Position numbers and translations under genes: made by a program
In this document: in pieces, positions 40,686 to 50,806 of the stretch
Position numbering within the stretch: position 1 is the stretch's first letter
Layout of the letters: each line of letters opens with the position of its first letter
DNA from: Gammaproteobacteria bacterium
GTDB taxonomy: Bacteria > Pseudomonadota > Gammaproteobacteria > SZUA-229
Reading direction: 5' to 3'
Assembly: GCA_029882355.1 (NCBI GenBank)
Contig: JAOUKV010000007.1
Location: 10,114 to 74,113, forward strand
Length of the DNA: 64,000 nucleotides
Notes under the pieces: model-generated
What the model was told of the DNA's origin: nothing
Databases searched by the model: none
What the model saw: the letters and a program-made list of their open reading frames with translations, nothing else

Positions 40686-41920
40686 GGCGGTGACCTCAAC
40701 CGGTCGACGCAACACATGCGTTAAATCTCTCTGCTGGTGTTTCAAATTCTAATGTTTTTCTTGGTCGCTCGTTTAGCTGACGAGCCACAGCATTGAGCTT
40801 TGTTTGTGAGTGTACCGCTAAGTCAGTTCCTTTTGGAAAATATTGTCGGAGTAACCGATTGGTATTTTCATTAGAACCTCGTTGCCAGGGACTACGTGGA
40901 TCACAAAAATAAACATCAATGTCAGTCTCTAGAGTAAACCGTTTGTGATCGGCCAGTTCTTTCCCTCTATCCCAGGTCAGTGATTTGTATAATTCATCCG
41001 GTAGTTTCTTTGATTGTTTTATCAGTGCGGATACGACACTCTTGGTATCTTTATTTTTAACTTTAGCTAGCATGACGTAACGTGTGTGTCGTTCAACTAA
41101 AGTGGCGATGTAACTATTATTTGAGCCTGCAATAAGGTCACCTTCCCAATGTCCGGGCACGGCTCTATCTTCTACAGATGCAGGCCGCTCACTAATCGAT
41201 ACGGCATCTTTGATTTTTCCAAGGCCATCTTTCTTGAGGCTGGCATGTTGAGAGCGGCGTATCGCTCGTTGAGTCCTGAGGTACTGCTGTAGCTCCTTTT
41301 TAAGCACACCACGGGTTTGAATAAATAAACTTCGGTAGATAGTCTCGTGTGACACTTGGCTGCTCTCATTGTTGGGGTAGGTTCTTTTTAGCCATCCCGC
41401 TATTTGTTCAGGTGACCAGTTTTTCATGAGCTTTGCCGCCACTTTTCGACTTAGCGATGGGTGAGTCGCGAGTTTACACAGCTTGGGGCGACAGGCTCGA
41501 TCCCAGGCGGCTTGATCAGCATGTGCAGCTCGATAGTCATCATAACCACCATTGCGTTTAATTTCACGACTGATGGTTGAAGGTGAACGGTTTAATTGCG
41601 ACGCGATTGAGCGTAATGATCGCTGACAGACGATGCCTCTTGAAATCTCTTCACGCTCAGAAATCGTCAGGGCAAGTTTTGATCGTACACGAGGTGCAGG
41701 TCGAATGCCTCCACTGGGTGACAGTATGCTAAAGATTGAGGATGATTCTCTATCAAATAGCCGACCAATTGAACTTTGGGATTCACCTCGTTGCCAGCGA
41801 TTCCATATTTCGTTCTTTTGTTCAGTGGTGTATTTTATTCGTGTTCTGTAGGCCATTTACAACACTCCATCTTTTTAATTAAAGATTATAGTGTTGCGTT
41901 GACCGGTTGAGGTCACCGCC
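40686..41920 (-). mobile_element. IS30-family insertion sequence (1235 bp) with 30-bp terminal inverted repeats
   Basis: IR-L at 40686..40715 (GGCGGTGACCTCAACCGGTCGACGCAACAC) and IR-R at 41891..41920 (reverse complement, 29/30 identical) flank a single transposase ORF. Confidence 0.9.
40696..41856 (-). CDS. IS30-family transposase
   Basis: 386 aa with an N-terminal HTH (WQRGESQSSIGRLF), a DDE integrase core (HWEGDLI...) and a C-terminal ETPAERFN motif typical of IS30 transposases. Confidence 0.9.
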   Translation of the reverse strand: MAYRTRIKYTTEQKNEIWNRWQRGESQSSIGRLFDRESSSIFSILSPSGGIRPAPRVRSKLALTISEREEISRGIVCQRSLRSIASQLNRSPSTISREIKRNGGYDDYRAAHADQAAWDRACRPKLCKLATHPSLSRKVAAKLMKNWSPEQIAGWLKRTYPNNESSQVSHETIYRSLFIQTRGVLKKELQQYLRTQRAIRRSQHASLKKDGLGKIKDAVSISERPASVEDRAVPGHWEGDLIAGSNNSYIATLVERHTRYVMLAKVKNKDTKSVVSALIKQSKKLPDELYKSLTWDRGKELADHKRFTLETDIDVYFCDPRSPWQRGSNENTNRLLRQYFPKGTDLAVHSQTKLNAVARQLNERPRKTLEFETPAERFNACVASTG

Positions 41921-41943
41921 AATAGCGGACGTTCGACCTAAAT

Positions 41944-41976
41944 AAAAAAGGCGACTTAAAAGCCGCCTTTTTATAG
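41944..41976. terminator. Rho-independent terminator downstream of the PEP-CTERM gene
   Basis: AAAAAGGCGACTTAAAAGCCGCCTTTTTAT: a GC-rich stem with flanking A- and T-tracts, 15 nt after the stop at 41988. Confidence 0.65.
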
Positions 41977-41987
41977 AGCCATATGAT

Positions 41988-42509
41988 TTAACTTTTATAT
42001 TTTTTGCGTCTAACAAAACCTATTAAACCAATTAAACCTGAACCGAATAACCATGCAGCTGCAGGAACTGGAACAGCTGAAACTGTACCTTGCCAAGATG
42101 GTGCCTGACCTGGGAATGGAGAAGTCTGCATTGGTACACCTGGGCCAGCAGATCCGTCCGCATTGAAAATAGCAAGAACGGGAATAGGTGAAGAAAGACT
42201 CCAGTCAAAAGCAAGGCCAAATGCAACCTGACCAGCAGTCAGAGTAAAGTTATATGAGAAAGCACCCCGTGATGAAGTACCTGCCCAAGTACTAGAAGAT
42301 GCATAAGAAGTTAAAGTAGTAGCAGTCCAGGGCTGGCTGAAGAATGTACCACCAAAAGTTGTACCCAGAGTGTCAGTATCAACAACACCAGTCGCAGCGC
42401 TCAGGCTAGGGAAGTTCATGCCTGTGATGTTAATTACCAGTGCTGAAGCCGGAGCTGCAGCAGTACCCAGAGTTAAAGCCATAGCACCTGCAAGTATTGC
42501 TTTATTCAT
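41988..42509 (-). CDS. Secreted protein with C-terminal PEP-CTERM-type sorting signal (VPLPA-CTERM variant)
   Basis: Signal peptide MNKAILAGAMALTLGTAAAPASA. A Thr/Ser/Gly-rich body ends in VPVPAAAWLFGSGLIGLIGFVRRKKYKS, which is motif, TM helix and basic tail. Confidence 0.8.
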   Translation of the reverse strand: MNKAILAGAMALTLGTAAAPASALVINITGMNFPSLSAATGVVDTDTLGTTFGGTFFSQPWTATTLTSYASSSTWAGTSSRGAFSYNFTLTAGQVAFGLAFDWSLSSPIPVLAIFNADGSAGPGVPMQTSPFPGQAPSWQGTVSAVPVPAAAWLFGSGLIGLIGFVRRKKYKS

Positions 42510-42994
42510 TTGTCATACTCCTTTACACATTTGTCCAAATTTATAATTTCCACACAGTAAATGCAAGATTGAAGCCTTATTTATAAGCTGCTGTTTTAAT
42601 AGGAATTAATAAAAAACATCATTCTAACAGTATTAAAAGTGTAAAGAAAAAATATTTAAGAGATTAATCACGAACGTCCGCTTTGGTCGTTAACAGTCAC
42701 TCAGATCTAGGCGCAGGTAGCGTATGAGAAAGAACAAGAGACTAAAAATCTCTTGTTCGAAATAATGTTGCTTTGAAATCAACAAGTTATATTTTCTAAC
42801 TGTTGTTTTCAAAACGACAAAAATGTGACAAAAAATATTTTTTGAGGTAAAAAAGGGAAATCATTAGCTGTAACTAACTGTTTTGTAAGGTGTTATTTTT
42901 GAGCGTCCTTGAGACGCCCCTGAAGCGAGATAAAAAAGCAGAGCACCGAAGCAATGATAAGAACATAACTCGTTGTTTTTAAAGGAATAAAAGA

Positions 42995-43070
42995 TGGTGG
43001 GTCGTGAGAGACTTGAACTCTCGACCAAGAGATTAAGAGTCTCCTGCTCTACCAACTGAGCTAACGACCC
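42995..43070 (-). tRNA. tRNA-Lys (CTT)
   Basis: Own fold: 5' GGGTCGTTAGCTCAGTTGGTAGAGCAG matches E. coli tRNA-Lys. Anticodon loop CTCTTAA, T-loop TTCAAGT, encoded CCA. Confidence 0.85.
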
Positions 43071-43098
43071 GAACTTACCGGTACTTAACTACAAAAAA

Positions 43099-43175
43099 TG
43101 GGGTGGATGATGGGGCTCGAACCCACGACAACCGGAATCACAATCCGGGACTCTACCAACTGAGCTACACCCACC
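43099..43175 (-). tRNA. tRNA-His (GTG)
   Basis: Extra 5' G(-1), anticodon loop TTGTGAT, T-loop TTCGAGC and CCA. Confidence 0.88.
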
Positions 43176-43187
43176 ATAAATCAAAAA

Positions 43188-43263
43188 TGGTGCGCCTGGC
43201 AGGATTCGAACCTGCTACCCTCGGCTTAGAAGGCCGATGCTCTATCCGAGTGAGCTACAGGCG
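43188..43263 (-). tRNA. tRNA-Arg (TCT)
   Basis: GCGCCTG acceptor stem, anticodon loop CTTCTAA, T-loop TTCGAAT and CCA. Confidence 0.88.
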
Positions 43264-43308
43264 CAGTATTTTGGGTTACTGCTATACCTTAAACCAGACA
43301 ACCAAAAA

Positions 43309-43385
43309 TTGGTCGGGGTGGAGAGATTCGAACTCCCGACATCCTGCTCCCAAAGCAGGCGCGCTACCAGACTGCGCTACACCCC
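43309..43385 (-). tRNA. tRNA-Pro (TGG)
   Basis: CGGGGTG acceptor stem, anticodon loop TTTGGGA, T-loop TTCGAAT and CCA. Confidence 0.88.
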
Positions 43386-43557
43386 GATACCCACATACCC
43401 AGCTGGATATGTGGAGGCGGGCATGATACGCGCTACCCCTATTCTGGTCAAGATAGAATTCATCAATTGAACGACTGTTTTTTACTTGTCGCTAGTACAT
43501 CGCACATGAGAGAATTCGCATCTTCATTCCCCACATCAATACGGACAGGAAAACTCC

Positions 43558-44418
43558 ATGCCTGCAAACATTATCGACGGTAAAGCTATCGCGGCAGAAA
43601 TACGTGAACAAGTGAAGCAAGCCGTCATAAAAAGGACTGAACATGGTATGGCAGCACCTGGCCTGGCCGTAATCCTCGTTGGAGAGTCACCCGCCTCCCA
43701 GGTGTACGTGCGCAAAAAAAGAGAAGCTTGTGCCGAAGCAGGCGTGCTATCAAAAGCTTTTGACCTGCCTGATAACACTAGCGAAAGCGATTTACTAAAT
43801 CTGATTAAACAGCTTAATGATGATAATGAGATCGACGGTATTCTGGTACAACTCCCCTTGCCTGAACACATTGACTCAACCACCGTGCTCGAAGCCATCC
43901 ACCCTGATAAAGACGTTGATGGTTTCCACCCCTACAACATTGGCCGCCTGGCGCAGCGCATGCCCTCACTAAGGCCCTGCACACCGCATGGCGTTATCCA
44001 TATGCTGGATAGTATTGGCGAAAAATACAAAGGTCGCCATGCCGTCATCGTTGGTGCTTCTAATATAGTGGGTCGCCCAATGGGACTGGAATTACTTTTA
44101 GCAGGTGCTACCGTTACAACCTGTCATCGTTTTACCGATGATTTAGCCGCGCACGTTGCACGTGCAGATATATTGGTTGTCGCTGTTGGTAAACCCGGCA
44201 TCGTCAAAGGCGAATGGGTTAAGCCTGGAGCTACCGTGATCGATGTTGGCATCAATCGTACTGCAGAGGGAAAACTAACCGGTGATGTTGATTTTGAAGC
44301 CGCTGCTGAAAAAGCCGCATTCATTACCCCCGTACCCGGAGGCGTCGGCCCTATGACGGTTGCCATGTTATTACGCAACACACTGCAAGCGGCAGACAAC
44401 CACAATTCAAATAGCTAG
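43558..44418 (+). CDS. folD: Bifunctional methylenetetrahydrofolate dehydrogenase/cyclohydrolase FolD
   Basis: 286 aa, collinear with E. coli FolD: NIIDGKAIA start, [18 protein letters not shown] and PGGVGPMT. Confidence 0.95.
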
Positions 44419-44421
44419 CGA

Positions 44422-44847
44422 CTATTCATTACCTGTACCATCAAAATCAACCAAACCATGTAAAACTATATCGGTAAAACTCACGATACCAATCACCTTA
44501 CCGTTTTCTAGCACTGGCGCACGGGACAAACCAAAGCGTTCGAGAAATCTTGCACAATAACGAATATCCATTTCAGGATCGATCGGCAATAAAGGCTTCG
44601 ACATAATCTCGTAAACATTTATCCTCTCTGGCGAACGATCTTTTGCTATTACACTTTTAGCAATATCTGAGATCAACAGAATCCCGTATTCATCATTCTC
44701 ATTACGCTTGTCTACAATTAAGGTTTTAGTTTCAACATGTTTCATGGTACGTAACGCATTCATCACCGTCATTTTTCCATCAACCATATCAAAATCGGCT
44801 TTCATCACATCTCTTACACGAACTACTTTTTTTTCAAGATTCATCAC
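44422..44847 (-). CDS. Stand-alone CBS-pair domain protein
   Basis: 141 aa with two CBS motifs (VRDVMKADFDMV..., EIMSKPLLPIDPEM...GIVSFTDIV). ATGA overlap with the upstream PII-like gene. Confidence 0.8.
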   Translation of the reverse strand: MMNLEKKVVRVRDVMKADFDMVDGKMTVMNALRTMKHVETKTLIVDKRNENDEYGILLISDIAKSVIAKDRSPERINVYEIMSKPLLPIDPEMDIRYCARFLERFGLSRAPVLENGKVIGIVSFTDIVLHGLVDFDGTGNE

Positions 44848-45200
44848 AAAACCTCCTCAACAAAATCAGTCAATTTTTCAATCTGGTGGGCAACACCGAC
44901 GGCATCTTCGACATCAATCTGGAATGCAATACCACTTCCGGGTGAACTATCAAACTCACCGACATCACTTATTTTTTCAAGTATGTGCCTACTCAAATGT
45001 TCCTCGACTAAAAACAGCACCACATCTCGTTGCGTTTCCAGCGAAAGCCCAAAAAAAGTTTTACCTTTATCCAGGCCCTCACCTCGCGCATTATTAATCA
45101 CGGTCGCCCCGGTTGCGCCAGATTCACGCGCCGCCTTCATCACCTTGTCCGTTTTTTCATCTTCAACAAAAGCTATTATTAATTTGAAATGCATACGCAC
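44844..45200 (-). CDS. PII-like (GlnB-fold) signalling protein
   Basis: 118 aa; KLIIAFVEDEKTDKVMKAARESGATGATVINNARGEG resembles the PII beta-alpha-beta fold and T-loop region. Confidence 0.65.
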   Translation of the reverse strand: MRMHFKLIIAFVEDEKTDKVMKAARESGATGATVINNARGEGLDKGKTFFGLSLETQRDVVLFLVEEHLSRHILEKISDVGEFDSSPGSGIAFQIDVEDAVGVAHQIEKLTDFVEEVL

Positions 45201-45259
45201 CTCCTAATTGAATAGATCAATATGTATATTTTTAAATCATTCACATCAACACTCCTTTC

Positions 45260-46039
45260 TCAATTTTTATTCGCTTTACTGCGTTTGGTTAGCCACACAG
45301 AAAGTTGTGCATACGTCATCACAGAAATTATCGGAAACAAACTGGCAAAAGCTATCAAACCAAAACCATCAATTAAGGGGCTTCTTCCCGGCACAGTTTC
45401 CGCCAAACCTAAACCCAAAGCAGCGACTAACGGTACAGTTACCGTTGAAGTGGTGACACCACCAGAATCATAAGCCAGTGGCACAATCGATTTAGGTGCA
45501 AAAAACGTTTGGATAACGACAATGATATAACCAGCAATGATGAAATAATGAATTGGCGCACCGATAACTATTCTGTATGCACCCAATGCAATGCCGACAG
45601 CAACACCGATAGCGACAGCAATCCTTAAACCCCAAATACTAATAGCACCACCAGAAACTTCGTTAGCTTTAATGGCTACCGCTATTAATGAAGGTTCTGC
45701 GATGGTGGTACTTGCACCTATGGCGAAGGCAAAGATATACACCCAATAATAATCCTGCCAGTGCAAGACGCCTGTTGTAATTCGCACTGTTTCTAAAAAT
45801 GCAGGATTAGTCAGCTGCTCCGCCATCATCCGGCCCACAGGAAAAAGAGCCAGTTCCAGCCCTAAGAGAAAAAAAGTGATGCCCACAAGGACATAAAACA
45901 TACCTATTAGCACTTTTTTTATATTTGGAACTCTTTTTCTAATAACCAGAAACTGGAAGCCAAAAAGAATAATGGCGATAGGTATAACATCAAACAAAGT
46001 TGATGCTAACTTATCGCCAAGTGCCTGCATAAAATCCAT
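45260..46039 (-). CDS. DUF1538 family membrane protein (copy 2)
   Basis: 259 aa polytopic protein with the conserved [25 protein letters not shown] motif shared with the adjacent paralogue. Confidence 0.8.
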   Translation of the reverse strand: MDFMQALGDKLASTLFDVIPIAIILFGFQFLVIRKRVPNIKKVLIGMFYVLVGITFFLLGLELALFPVGRMMAEQLTNPAFLETVRITTGVLHWQDYYWVYIFAFAIGASTTIAEPSLIAVAIKANEVSGGAISIWGLRIAVAIGVAVGIALGAYRIVIGAPIHYFIIAGYIIVVIQTFFAPKSIVPLAYDSGGVTTSTVTVPLVAALGLGLAETVPGRSPLIDGFGLIAFASLFPIISVMTYAQLSVWLTKRSKANKN

Positions 46040-46774
46040 TTAGACGATCATCCCGTAACCCAGAACAAAAATAATGGGCGTTAATGAGGCAAAGGCAATT
46101 AGACCAAAACCATCCAGCATAGGGTTACGTCCAGAAATTGAGGAAGCCAGGCCAATTCCCAATGCAGTCACTAATGGCACGGTAATGGTAGAGGTAGTGA
46201 CACCACCAGAATCATAGGCAATACCTATAATTTCATCAGGCGCAAATCCGGTCATAATAATCACCATGACGTAACCAATCATGATCATAAAATGTATTGG
46301 CCAGTTTTTTAATATACGCAAGACACCGATAACGATGGCAAAGCCCACTGACAATGCAACCGTAAAACGTAAGCCAGTGGAGTAACTATCCATGGCTTCT
46401 GCATGATTGTTGATATGCCCTGCCCTGGCTGCCACCTTCGCTGCCTCATCGGCCACAGCAATCAATGCCGGTTCCGCCACAGTTGTGCCAAAACCCAGCG
46501 CAAAAGCAAACATCAGCAACCAGAACACACTACCTTTTCGCGCAAAAGCATGCGCCATGGATTCGCCAATCGGAAACAGACCCATCTCCAGACCATAGAT
46601 AAAAAAGGTTAACCCGATAATGACAAAAAACACACCTGAAAGCAGATCAGCGACATTTTCCAACGGCTGCTGCAAAACAAACAGCTGAAAAAAGCCAATA
46701 ACTAGAATAATAGGGGCGAGATCACGAACACTGCCCATCATCGATTTTAAAAAAGAGAGAAGTGATTTGTTCAA
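46040..46774 (-). CDS. DUF1538 family membrane protein (copy 1)
   Basis: 244 aa polytopic protein with [25 protein letters not shown]; immediately adjacent to copy 2 with no gap. Confidence 0.8.
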
Positions 46775-46859
46775 AAGTTTGCTATTGAAAAAATAATTGA
46801 CATGGATATCGGAGATTAAACGTCAGCCCCTTTCAGTGCAATGATCTTGATCAAACCAA

Positions 46860-47663
46860 TTAGATATTAAAAAACATTTTTGTATTAACCAGAGCCGCAT
46901 GTTCCAGTTCCTCAATCTCCACACCCATATATCGGGAGACCGTTTTAGCAATGTGTGGCAAATAACAAGGTTCATTACGACGATTTTTTACTGGTTTTTT
47001 ATCCAGATCCCTCGGCAACAAATAAGGTGCATCGGTCTCAAGCATCACTCTATCTAAAGGAATTTCTTTGACTGCCTGTTGCAAATCCTGACCTCGTCGC
47101 TCATCACAAATCCAGCCGGTGATACCAATATGCATATCCAGCTCAAGATAATCATTCACCTCGGCAGCCGTGCCAGTAAAACAATGCGCTACAGCATTGT
47201 TCAGCTGAGGCCGAACATTCTTCAACATGGCAATAAAATCATCATGTGCATCACGTTGATGCAAAAATACTGGTTTCTGTATCTCAACTGCCAGTTCCAG
47301 CTGCCCATCAAAAGCAGTACGTTGATTCTGTTTCGTTGAAAAATTTCGATTGTAATCCAGACCACACTCACCGATCGCCACAACACAATCCTGATGACTG
47401 AGCTCTGCTAACAACCTACTTGTTTCTCTCGTATATTCATCGGCATGATGCGGATGCACACCCGCTGTCGAAAAAAGCACCTTTGAGTACTGTTTGCACA
47501 ACTCAATCGCCTTTCGACTATGCTTAATGTCCGTACCGGTCACAATCATTCTGCCGACACCAGAGGCCATCGCTCTCTGTACGACGATATCCAGATCACC
47601 GTCAAAGGAACTGCCCGTTAAATTAACGCCTATATCAATATAATCACTCATTTGCGGTATCAT
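46860..47663 (-). CDS. tatD: TatD-family Mg-dependent 3'-5' exonuclease
   Basis: 267 aa, closely collinear with E. coli TatD (IGECGLDYNRNFS, HCFTGT, GITGWICDERRG, ETDAPYLLPRDL, RRNEP). Confidence 0.9.
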   Translation of the reverse strand: MIPQMSDYIDIGVNLTGSSFDGDLDIVVQRAMASGVGRMIVTGTDIKHSRKAIELCKQYSKVLFSTAGVHPHHADEYTRETSRLLAELSHQDCVVAIGECGLDYNRNFSTKQNQRTAFDGQLELAVEIQKPVFLHQRDAHDDFIAMLKNVRPQLNNAVAHCFTGTAAEVNDYLELDMHIGITGWICDERRGQDLQQAVKEIPLDRVMLETDAPYLLPRDLDKKPVKNRRNEPCYLPHIAKTVSRYMGVEIEELEHAALVNTKMFFNI

Positions 47664-48631: not shown

Positions 48632-48868
48632 ATGAGTCTTTCAATATCTAAAAATATTGGTCGTATTGACCAGCTTATTCGTCTGGGCATCAGTCTCAGC
48701 ATGATCTATTTCGGCTTCTTTGATCTTAGCCTGATCCAGGATAAATTCAGCGCAACCATCGTCGGCATTTTCGGCTCGATGAATCTAATAGTGGCACTAA
48801 TACAATACTGCCCCCTGTACGCCGTCGTCGGTATCAATACTTATTGCAAAGCTAAAACTGAAATATAG
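48632..48868 (+). CDS. DUF2892 (YgaP-like) small membrane protein
   Basis: 78 aa with two TM helices and a conserved CPLY motif; 15 nt upstream of the GGDEF-EAL gene. Confidence 0.65.
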   Translation: MSLSISKNIGRIDQLIRLGISLSMIYFGFFDLSLIQDKFSATIVGIFGSMNLIVALIQYCPLYAVVGINTYCKAKTEI

Positions 48869-48883
48869 GGATCACCCGAAGCA

Positions 48884-50806
48884 ATGAAGTTTTCAACTCA
48901 ACTGGTGCTATCTATTTTAGGTATCACCATTTTGTCTCTATCCGTCTTTGGCAGCATTGCTTACTGGATTATTGATGATGGCCACGATCAAACCCATAAT
49001 GAGTTACTGCAACACATGGCCACAACCATACATAAGCACTGGCTTGTCTCCAAAGAAAAAACACTTACTCAAGCCTCGCTCAATCTGATTCACGAAAAAT
49101 TCGCCGCTCCTGATAGCATTCTCCTGGTTGAACATCTTAATGGCACTCGACTGCTTGTTGGTAACACAACTCAGACCCCATCAGCATTTATTGCTAAGAT
49201 AAAACATGCTATTAAAATATCCAACGCTTCAACGGCAAATTATGGTTCTTTAGAAATAGATAATCGTGCTTATCACTGGAACATCAGCCAGTTACCCAAC
49301 AGCCAGTACCGCCTCACCCTGTTGCACGATGATTCAACAGGACAACATCAGTCCGACTTCAAACTGGGCATGCGCCTGCTTGCCACCAGCATCATCATCA
49401 TCTGGATGGCCGTCTGGTTAGCACTGTTACTAAGCTCAATTATTAGTCGAAGACTAAAGGAAAAAAATGAAGCTATAAAGCATCAGGCTTTGCATGATAA
49501 TCTCACTGGCCTACCTAATCGAAACCTGCTTTTCGATCGCCTTGATCAGGCGCAACTAGCCGCCAATCGCAACAAAACATCTTTCGCCCTGCTGCTCATG
49601 GATCTTGATAACTTCAAGGAAATTAATGATGCTCTCGGCCATCACTTCGGTGATCTAATGTTGAAAAAAATCAGCACCATTATTCAGCAGACGCTCCGGG
49701 AAAATGACTCAATCGCCAGATTAGGTGGTGATGAGTTTGCTGTATTGCTGCCTGATACTGAGCAGGAAGGCGCTCTCCAATGTGCCCAAAAAATACTGAC
49801 TAGTCTAAAAACGCCTTTCAACGTTAAAGATATTCGTATTGAAAGCAGCGCCAGCATAGGCATAGTATTCTACCCACAGGATGGTAGCGATACCGAAATT
49901 CTGTTACAACGTGCTGACATCGCCATGTACCAGGCAAAAAAAACACGTAGCCACTACGTTATTTATGACCAGAGCAGAGATTTCGATAACGTCAGACAAC
50001 TAACGTTAATGAATGCGCTGAGAGAAACCATTAAAAATGACCAGCTGGATGTCTACTACCAGCCCATGGTCGATCAGAAAACGGGCTGCACTATTGCTGC
50101 CGAGGCACTCGCACGCTGGCATCACCCGGAATTAGGTTTTATATCACCTGAAGAATTTATACCGATAGCCGAACGAACGGGGCTCATCAGAAAGCTCACC
50201 TTATCTGTCATAAAACAGGCTATGCATGACTGCAAACAATGGCAGGACATGGGTTATGAAATGATGGTCGCCATCAACATATCGACACATTGCCTGCAAG
50301 ACCAGTCTTTCCCCAGAAAACTCAATCAAATATTACAGACTAGCGCTATATCAGCCCATAGCATTGAATTGGAGATTACAGAAAGTGCTTTAATGCAAGA
50401 TATCGGTGGGGCACGTCAAGTCTTGCAGCAACTTAACCTTGCCGGTTACAGTTTATCCATCGACGACTTTGGCACGGGCTTTTCATCATTAGCCTATTTA
50501 AAAGAGCTGCCCGTTGACACCTTAAAAATTGACAAATCATTCATATTTGATATGGATAGTAACGAGGACGATACGGCCATTGTGCAAACTGTGATAGAAC
50601 TTGCACACAATTTTAATTGTAAAGTCATTGCCGAAGGCGTCGAAACCACAAGCTCACTCGAACAGCTGAAGGGTCTAGGCAACGATATTGCGCAAGGCTA
50701 CTTATTCAGCAAGCCCATACCTTTTGAAGAATTTAATATATGGTTACAGGACTCCGAATGGGCTCCCGTTTCCACTATAAAAGAAAGGGTATCAGATGCA
50801 ATCTAA
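48884..50806 (+). CDS. Membrane sensor diguanylate cyclase/phosphodiesterase (periplasmic sensor - GGDEF - EAL)
   Basis: 640 aa with two TM segments flanking a periplasmic domain of about 150 aa. The GGDEF motif is intact (RLGGDEFAVLL) and the EAL domain has EALARW and DDFGTGFSS. Confidence 0.9.
   Translation: MKFSTQLVLSILGITILSLSVFGSIAYWIIDDGHDQTHNELLQHMATTIHKHWLVSKEKTLTQASLNLIHEKFAAPDSILLVEHLNGTRLLVGNTTQTPSAFIAKIKHAIKISNASTANYGSLEIDNRAYHWNISQLPNSQYRLTLLHDDSTGQHQSDFKLGMRLLATSIIIIWMAVWLALLLSSIISRRLKEKNEAIKHQALHDNLTGLPNRNLLFDRLDQAQLAANRNKTSFALLLMDLDNFKEINDALGHHFGDLMLKKISTIIQQTLRENDSIARLGGDEFAVLLPDTEQEGALQCAQKILTSLKTPFNVKDIRIESSASIGIVFYPQDGSDTEILLQRADIAMYQAKKTRSHYVIYDQSRDFDNVRQLTLMNALRETIKNDQLDVYYQPMVDQKTGCTIAAEALARWHHPELGFISPEEFIPIAERTGLIRKLTLSVIKQAMHDCKQWQDMGYEMMVAINISTHCLQDQSFPRKLNQILQTSAISAHSIELEITESALMQDIGGARQVLQQLNLAGYSLSIDDFGTGFSSLAYLKELPVDTLKIDKSFIFDMDSNEDDTAIVQTVIELAHNFNCKVIAEGVETTSSLEQLKGLGNDIAQGYLFSKPIPFEEFNIWLQDSEWAPVSTIKERVSDAI

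Follow-up and report, generated by a model that had tools for sequence, protein, structure and literature searches.

A widely conserved four-gene cassette suggests PII-like and CBS-pair control of UmpAB-type DUF1538 transporters

Introduction

Control of a co-encoded transporter by a PII protein is known from the AmtB-GlnK and SbtA-SbtB systems; in the former, a T-loop-bearing trimeric regulator plugs the ammonium channel from the cytoplasmic face. Among membrane proteins of the DUF1538 family, the closest described system is UmpAB of Halomonas zhaodongensis, which Meng et al. (2017) described as a heterodimeric Na+(Li+,K+)/H+ antiporter (PMC5484666). UmpA and UmpB co-immunoprecipitate, co-expression of the two is needed, and everted vesicles carrying them display pH-dependent Na+(Li+,K+)/H+ antiport (PMC5484666). 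The subunits share three conserved acidic residues and differ in that loop III-IV is longer in UmpA, whereas UmpB has the longer loop II-III and ends in a hydrophilic C-terminus; the cloned Halomonas fragment ended after umpB, and partners of the PII or CBS type are never mentioned (PMC5484666). The locus that we describe here lies in a stretch of 64,000 nucleotides (nt) from an ENA metagenome contig of an uncultured gammaproteobacterium of the lineage SZUA-229 (assembly GCA_029882355.1, contig JAOUKV010000007.1, positions 10,114 to 74,113 of the forward strand; hereafter the window). It consists of two DUF1538 genes, a gene for a PII-like protein and a gene for a CBS-pair protein.

Of all families of bacterial Na+/H+ antiporters, UmpAB/DUF1538 is the one least understood; none of its members has a solved structure, and the DUF1538 profile matches none of the PDB sequences. 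PF07556, the Pfam family of these proteins, was listed, like K+ transporters and Mrp subunits, among the gene families of pH adaptation (PMC13255231), and in cable bacteria UmpAB was postulated to be a salinity adaptation, on genomic grounds and with no experimental test (PMC12093952). Neither the UmpAB work nor the pH and cable-bacteria studies describe PII or CBS partners, and no such link came up in literature searches for PII-like proteins together with antiporters, CBS domains and gene neighbourhoods. The control of co-encoded transporters by PII proteins and the function of UmpAB are known; what is new is the finding of PII and CBS partners of an UmpAB-type antiporter. Our preferred reading, which we regard as reasonably likely, is that the operon encodes an UmpAB-type Na+(Li+,K+)/H+ antiporter whose gating is brought about by a PII-like trimer and a CBS sensor of the AMP type.

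The cassette in the window

The four genes are given below in the order in which they would be transcribed, together with the one spacer that separates them (aa, amino acids).

46040..46774, minus strand: umpA-like gene, 244 aa from a TTG start; Pfam DUF1538 PF07556, E-value 2.7e-70
45260..46039, minus strand: umpB-like gene, 259 aa, DUF1538 membrane subunit B; PF07556, E-value 4.3e-68
45195..45259, minus strand: spacer between the umpB-like and PII-like genes, 65 nt, with an AGGAGG ribosome-binding site ahead of the PII-like gene
44844..45194, minus strand: PII-like gene, 116 aa from ATG; Pfam P-II PF00543, 45.9 bits against a cut-off of 25
44422..44847, minus strand: CBS-pair (Bateman module) gene, 141 aa, GTG start; two CBS motifs, PF00571, E-value 1.5e-17

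An earlier reading of this DNA, made from the sequence only and here called the sequence-only reading, had placed four minus-strand open reading frames (ORFs) at 44422-46774, and we recovered them at exactly those coordinates. The source gene calls contain the same four genes with tatD and folD on the flanks, and tRNA genes are also close to the cassette. The earlier statement that the genes abut with 0-nt and 4-nt junctions holds for two of the junctions but not for the third. Read from the sequence, the umpA stop codon TAA is directly followed by the ATG of umpB, and the GTG start of the CBS gene lies across the PII stop codon in a 4-nt GTGA overlap. Between umpB and the PII-like gene, however, there is a spacer of 65 nt, or of 59 nt if translation begins at an alternative GTG at 45200, which would give a protein of 118 aa; the AGGAGG Shine-Dalgarno sequence is 5 nt before the ATG.

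The source gene call for umpA starts at an ATG at 46738 and yields 232 aa, versus 244 aa from the TTG. Residues 1-12 of the TTG form are kept in the orthologues, and the NCBIfam UmpA model aligns from position 2; for this reason we favour the TTG start, and the gene as deposited probably lacks its N-terminal end. Scans for promoters and terminators over 44200-47000 gave signals no better than those of shuffled sequences, and an Rfam scan found tRNAs only, with no match in the spacer between umpB and the PII-like gene.

Conservation of the cassette and of the PII partner

To place the cassette among its relatives, an alignment of the A and B proteins was used to scan the species genomes of GTDB, and the best 80 of 580 relatives were kept (65-89% identity). 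They are mostly from Gammaproteobacteria, with additional loci from Nitrospirales, Electrothrix and Gallionellaceae. A metagenome scan provided 80 further loci; seeding it with distant representatives returned the same four-gene clade. Partners were counted with iterated hidden Markov model searches of all ORFs, at those loci in which both DUF1538 genes are present and the sequence continues for 900 nt or more downstream, with the following result.

Genome contigs: 73 loci counted; PII-like gene in 73, CBS gene in 71
Metagenome contigs: 58 loci counted; PII-like gene in 58, CBS gene in 56

All 131 related loci thus have the PII-like gene after the two DUF1538 genes, and 127 of them have the CBS gene as well, with the same gene order in all 127; the four-gene arrangement is far beyond chance. 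A PII-like gene without a CBS gene is found in loci L009 and L016 (Thiomicrorhabdus, Thiosulfatimonas) and in the metagenome loci L111 and L148. Two metagenome-assembled genomes of giant sulfur bacteria (L022 5289-9998, Candidatus Parabeggiatoa; L049 5839-8318, Thiomargarita) have an umpA-like gene alone, without umpB, PII or CBS, and were left out of the 131 counted; their lone gene suggests decay, rearrangement or misassembly.

The junctions, for which statistics were taken over 133-150 loci, differ in how well they are conserved. The median distance from A to B is -1 nt, whereas the spacing between B and PII has a median of about 10 nt and ranges from -16 to 652 nt, so that its length is not conserved among the orthologues. 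From PII to CBS the distance is exactly -4 nt in 104 of 133 loci. This supports the GTG start of the CBS gene in the window and implies that PII and CBS are translationally coupled. The flanks of the cassette, on the other hand, are not conserved: the most frequent downstream neighbours are AmpD (7 loci), FolD (6 loci) and a Kef-type Na_H_Exchanger with TrkA (6 of 72 loci), and the commonest upstream neighbours are NadC (7 loci) and DUF1631 (5 loci). Because the surrounding genes change from locus to locus, we regard the four genes as an autonomous, self-contained operon. The Kef-type exchanger, with TrkA_N and TrkA_C domains, lies directly downstream in L009 (8106-10094) and five other loci; in L009 it is on the opposite strand.

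More distant relatives were collected through a tblastn search of plasmids and chromids, which gave nine records of less than 35% identity that represent seven distinct loci (Methylocystis, Chelativorans, Peptoclostridium, Vescimonas, Paraclostridium, Subdoligranulum and Acetoanaerobium). In all seven, from Alphaproteobacteria and Clostridia, a P-II gene is located directly downstream of the DUF1538 genes, which are separate in the Alphaproteobacteria and fused in the Clostridia; a CBS gene was found in none of the seven. In the Clostridia the P-II partner has roughly double the usual length, at 217-229 aa (217-224 aa for L087 5475-6143, L089 4728-5396, L088 5521-6195 and L176 3609-4262), with a maximal ORF of 305 aa in Subdoligranulum. 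Of these proteins, the one from Peptoclostridium (L087) has two P-II stretches recognized by Pfam, and the others have the C-terminal one only. These partners may represent tandem PII domains, in which case the expected geometry of the oligomer would be altered.

The association goes further in the Campylobacterota. A search with representative sequences identified 2969 DUF1538 relatives, many of which are fused A-B proteins, and one representative (P0122) is a fusion of two DUF1538 domains and a PII domain. This triple fusion is present in at least 120 protein clusters of the Campylobacterota, has a length of 650-670 aa, and carries the PII domain joined to the C-terminus of the B domain. In Arcobacteraceae (L090 2662-6971; also L091 and L092) the fusion gene follows, on the same strand, a gene for a K+ channel (Ion_trans_2 with TrkA_N/TrkA_C) and a gene for a separate RCK protein (TrkA_N/TrkA_C), and the three may form a larger operon for K+ homeostasis. 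Another representative, P0123 (724 aa), has a cytidylate-kinase-like / AAA_18 P-loop domain at the C-terminus of its two DUF1538 domains, in place of PII. This may be an alternative nucleotide-sensing regulatory domain, and its position where PII is otherwise found again points to nucleotide-dependent control.

The sequence-only reading had proposed to check whether PII and CBS accompany DUF1538 in other genomes, and had named their absence as an outcome that would speak against a functional link. For the PII partner the link has withstood this check, with adjacency in the 131 related and the seven distant loci in addition to the fusion; the parallel that had been drawn with SbtA/SbtB or AmtB/GlnK survives with it, as the PII partner is family-wide and in one phylum fused to the transporter. 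For CBS the outcome is divided: the partner is conserved in a mainly gammaproteobacterial clade that includes a few other phyla, but it is missing from the loci of Alphaproteobacteria, Clostridia and Campylobacterota.

The same data bear on an alternative in which the PII-like and CBS proteins act on other targets, conveying ion or energy status to metabolism, or in which the transporter serves to anchor or sequester them. PII proteins typically have several targets, and the CBS protein is dispensable in many lineages. Furthermore, a second PII-CBS pair exists in L155 (10024-10700), where a divergent PII-like gene (116 aa) and a CBS gene are found about 2.7 kb past the cassette, after a gene for a Kef-type exchanger and not directly after a DUF1538 gene. 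The separate location of this pair suggests that PII and CBS form a module of their own that may serve other partners too. However, a whole phylum has PII covalently linked to the B domain at its C-terminus, and this speaks for an effect on the transporter itself, as does the adjacency of the PII gene in all 131 related loci counted; there is also no other conserved neighbour that might be the target. We consider this alternative improbable.

The membrane subunits resemble UmpA and UmpB

The two DUF1538 proteins of the window had been recognized in the sequence-only reading as paralogues with a common motif, and this is borne out by 48% mutual identity and by a shared motif that ends in (I/V)TVPLV in both. 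NCBIfam contains equivalog models titled 'Na,Li,K/H(+) antiporter subunit UmpA' and 'UmpB', and each window protein is the reciprocal best match to its own model. The first protein scores 385.9 bits with the UmpA model (NF041627; cut-off 490) versus 190.3 bits with the UmpB model, and the second 365 bits with the UmpB model (NF041628; cut-off 500) versus 204.3 bits with the UmpA model. Ten orthologues score 358-401 bits and are also below the equivalog cut-offs of 490 and 500, which no representative of the 50% clusters reaches; in RefSeq the orthologues are named 'DUF1538 domain-containing protein'. In the alignment of A and B, the features that set the Halomonas subunits apart can be seen: loop III-IV is extended by an insertion in the umpA product, as is typical of UmpA, and the umpB product has the extended loop II-III and the hydrophilic C-terminal tail of UmpB. 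By sequence, then, the window proteins are A-type and B-type subunits of the UmpAB type; because their scores fall below the equivalog cut-offs, we use UmpAB-type as a label and treat the substrate as extrapolated from Halomonas.

Three acidic residues, E101 (in TxAEP), D188 (YDSGGVTT) and D221 (DGFG), are invariant in a diverse alignment of ten sequences. In an AlphaFold2 (AF2) model of the natural triple fusion, with a mean predicted local distance difference test (pLDDT) score of 75.3 and a predicted template modelling (pTM) score of 0.66, the motifs AEP, YDxGGVTT-TSTV and DGFG are placed at helix breaks in each DUF1538 domain. This arrangement is typical of the ion-binding sites of secondary transporters.

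The sequence-only reading held that DUF1538 has no assigned substrate, a statement that is outdated: the assignment to antiport dates from 2017 (PMC5484666), and the NCBIfam models for UmpA and UmpB carry it. Its suggestion of a heterodimeric transporter fares well in the light of the co-immunoprecipitation and the need for co-expression reported for the homologous UmpAB (PMC5484666). For the pair in the window, heterodimer formation and pH-dependent antiport would follow by analogy with the homologue described in that literature. Halomonas itself does not appear among the best 80 of the 580 relatives in the genome scan, and the Gynuella orthologue, used as the seed of a further homologue search, led to Teredinibacter, Neiella and Halioglobus.

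A different explanation retains the DUF1538 architecture regulated by PII and CBS and assigns it another substrate, such as bicarbonate or another anion, ammonium, Mg2+ or a metabolite, with Na+/H+ antiport being a side activity of overexpression. The scores below the UmpA and UmpB equivalog cut-offs would be compatible with this, as would the fact that the evidence on the substrate comes from a single heterologous study. Among its closest structural counterparts the PII-like protein has the carbon-regulatory proteins SbtB and CPII, and many of the organisms carrying the cassette are chemolithoautotrophs (Thiomicrorhabdus, relatives of Beggiatoa, Sedimenticola, Gallionellaceae and Nitrospirales). 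However, the Foldseek E-values of canonical PII and GlnK are within about threefold of that of SbtB, and the cassette is equally common in heterotrophs (Colwellia, Vibrio, Shewanella, Teredinibacter and Clostridia). The informative recurrent neighbours are K+ channels, RCK proteins and Kef-type exchangers, whereas carboxysome, RuBisCO and carbonic anhydrase families are absent among the recurrent neighbours. A link to carbon concentration was dropped, as such genes are not recurrent in the flanks. We therefore think it unlikely that the transporter has a substrate other than those of UmpAB.

A non-canonical PII-like protein

The product of the third gene scores 45.9 bits with the Pfam P-II model, above the gathering score of 25. 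An AF2 model of this protein (pLDDT 71) contains the beta-alpha-beta-beta-alpha-beta core of PII proteins, a disordered T-loop at residues 38-53 and an additional C-terminal helix at residues 98-115. A Foldseek search against the PDB gave SbtB, PII, CPII and GlnK as top matches (E-values of about 1e-5, probability 1.0); SbtB chains led the matches of both models that were searched. The sequence-only reading had assigned a GlnB fold and had stated in advance that a failure of fold recognition would count against it; the AF2 model and the Foldseek matches both recover the fold.

The sequence itself departs from GlnB and GlnK. None of 143 family members matches either PROSITE signature of PII proteins (used in the form Y-[KR]-G-[AS]-[AE]-Y for the uridylylation site and [ST]-x(3)-G-[DY]-G-[KR]-[IV]-[FW]-[LIVM] for the B-loop), whereas the E. 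coli GlnB control matches both. Aligned with E. coli GlnB, the T-loop lacks a tyrosine and is five residues shorter. The protein also does not retain the full set of residues for binding ATP and 2-oxoglutarate (2-OG), which comprises Q39, K58, K90, R101 and R103: in the same alignment, on which these assignments depend, I stands in place of K90, and V/A and H in place of R101 and R103. The family has motifs of its own, RGEG in 123 of 143 members, GxG[IL]A[FIV] in 124 and QRD in 114, and the C-terminal CGPxGC loop occurs in none of the 143. The T-loop is among the best conserved segments of the family, which fits the expectation for a docking surface.

At least 8000 database sequences match the PII-like protein, and those that have been named are called nitrogen regulators or hypothetical proteins; the source name for the protein in the window is 'P-II family nitrogen regulator'. 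One could assume from this name, and from the score above the Pfam threshold, that the third gene encodes an ordinary nitrogen regulator of the GlnB/GlnK type that happens to be located next to unrelated membrane genes. Against this stand the missing signatures, the T-loop without tyrosine and the replacements at K90, R101 and R103. NCBIfam has no match at all for the protein, no amtB or nitrogen-assimilation gene is adjacent to the cassette in the window, and the partner that persists across phyla is DUF1538. This reading is very improbable; the evidence from signatures, residues and neighbourhood effectively refutes it. On sequence grounds the protein belongs to a non-canonical PII subfamily distinct from GlnB and GlnK. 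Because the PII fold is present and the GlnB/GlnK signatures are absent, 'nitrogen regulator' is probably a misnomer that reflects Pfam membership only.

The CBS-pair protein

The two PF00571 stretches of the fourth protein form one tandem module, with homology over the full length to the solved CBS pairs 5nmu and 1pvm. Its best solved homologue is the CBS pair of CBS-CP12 from Microcystis (5nmu; E-value 9e-22, residues 7-128), which binds AMP and not ADP, ATP or cAMP (PMC6142219). By analogy with this homologue, the CBS protein is most plausibly an AMP-type sensor. Other identities were considered and rejected: as a c-di-AMP receptor the protein scores 15.9 bits with the CbpB equivalog model versus a cut-off of 125, and matches to an anti-phage CBS protein and to lysozyme-like proteins are far below their cut-offs.

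Proposed mechanism

The idea that the PII-like protein regulates the DUF1538 transporter is strongly supported, and we infer that a ligand does the gating. In the mechanism that we propose, E101, D188 and D221 of each DUF1538 subunit would form the ion or proton site, as the modelled positions of the motifs suggest. The PII-like protein would form a trimer like other PII proteins, and its conserved T-loop (RGEG...FFGLSLETQRD) would dock on the cytoplasmic face of the transporter. The natural fusion sets A, B and PII at 1:1:1 and places the C-terminus of B in the cytoplasm; since this stoichiometry is fixed, three A-B units may assemble with one PII trimer as (AB)3:PII3. By analogy with GlnK-AmtB and SbtB-SbtA, a small bound ligand would decide whether PII blocks or releases transport. 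In the mainly gammaproteobacterial clade, the CBS-pair protein, made in step with PII through the 4-nt overlap, would add a second input. AMP or energy charge is the most plausible signal, with ionic strength as another candidate, and the target could be either the PII-like protein or the transporter itself. Overall, an antiporter that consumes proton-motive force would be throttled after translation.

Several observations weigh against this mechanism. The window proteins score below the equivalog cut-offs that would make them UmpA and UmpB proper, and the assignment to antiport goes back to heterologous assays of one laboratory in E. coli KNabc. A structural homologue of the membrane domain was not found. 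The PII-like protein, without K90, R101, R103 and the PROSITE signatures, may not bind adenine nucleotides. Finally, a PII trimer is difficult to match with a pseudo-twofold heterodimer, and the (AB)3:PII3 assembly is speculative.

Hints of a role in cation homeostasis come from the genes for a K+ channel and an RCK protein in Arcobacteraceae and from the Kef-type neighbours described above. The four-gene set, conserved in many bacteria, points to an undescribed switching of salt and pH transport that depends on the state of the cell. More generally, the very widespread PII-like subfamily, whose ligand pocket is altered and which many Gammaproteobacteria combine with a CBS partner of the AMP type, could be a cytoplasmic gate on UmpAB-type antiporters. 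These would then be a third structural class of PII-plugged transporters, next to AmtB-GlnK and SbtA-SbtB, a proposal that we would put at even chances.

Other features of the window

Outside the cassette we noted the following genes.

40696-41856: gene for an IS30-like transposase (HTH_38 and rve)
41988-42509: gene for a secreted protein of 173 aa with a PEP-CTERM-like C-terminus (VPVPAAAWLFGSGLIGLIGFVRRKK) and no Pfam match
42995-43386: cluster of four tRNA genes (Lys, His, Arg, Pro), near the IS30-like transposase (region 40696-43386)
48632-50806, strand opposite to the cassette: gene for a YgaP-like membrane protein of 78 aa, then a gene for a GGDEF-EAL protein of 640 aa with an N-terminal membrane sensor region

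Implications

The functional study of UmpAB tested the transporter without the two proteins whose genes accompany the DUF1538 genes in nearly all genomes sampled. Should the PII-like and CBS proteins gate UmpAB, the published kinetics would be those of a deregulated transporter. PII signalling, if the mechanism is confirmed, would extend from nitrogen and carbon to ion, pH and energy homeostasis, and would be tied to the homeostasis of Na+, K+ and pH in particular. The annotation of the PII-like sequences, at least 8000 in the databases, calls for correction where they are named nitrogen regulators or hypothetical proteins. The single-chain DUF1538-DUF1538-PII proteins of the Campylobacterota offer ready-made complexes for structure determination, and cultured organisms that carry the cassette exist, for example Teredinibacter turnerae T7901 (operon at 3797398-3799705 of CP001614.2), Shewanella maritima and Vibrio kyushuensis.

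Comparison with known systems

The closest known system, UmpAB of Halomonas, likewise consists of two adjacent, overlapping or abutting paralogous DUF1538 genes, and it shares with the pair in the window the A-type and B-type loops, the hydrophilic C-terminus of B and the three acidic residues. The window pair differs in scoring below the equivalog cut-offs and in that the transporter is part of a four-gene unit.

Both the AmtB-GlnK and the SbtA-SbtB systems resemble the cassette in the relation between transporter and regulator. As in the window, glnK is a PII-family gene co-transcribed with a membrane transport partner. However, the transporter in the window is unrelated to Amt and belongs to DUF1538, its PII-like protein lacks the uridylylation tyrosine, the residues for 2-OG and ATP and the PROSITE signatures, and the cassette has an additional CBS subunit. 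In SbtA-SbtB (PDB 7egk) a gene for a non-canonical PII-like protein is located immediately downstream of the transporter gene, as it is in the window. Here too the transporters differ, since the window proteins match only DUF1538 and not the SbtA family, and the transport unit is a heterodimer; moreover, the window family is without the CGPxGC redox loop of SbtB and has no link to carbon-concentrating genes.

KefC-KefF, KhtU-KhtT, OpuA, MgtE and CorC are cation/proton or osmoregulatory transporters that are set by a cytoplasmic module sensing nucleotides or ionic strength. In these systems the sensor is an RCK domain, a flavodoxin-like protein or an attached CBS domain, whereas in the window the putative sensors are a stand-alone PII-like protein and a stand-alone CBS pair. 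The closest solved homologue of that CBS pair, CBS-CP12 of Microcystis (5nmu), has a CP12 domain that the window protein lacks, and it acts on phosphoribulokinase and not on a transporter.

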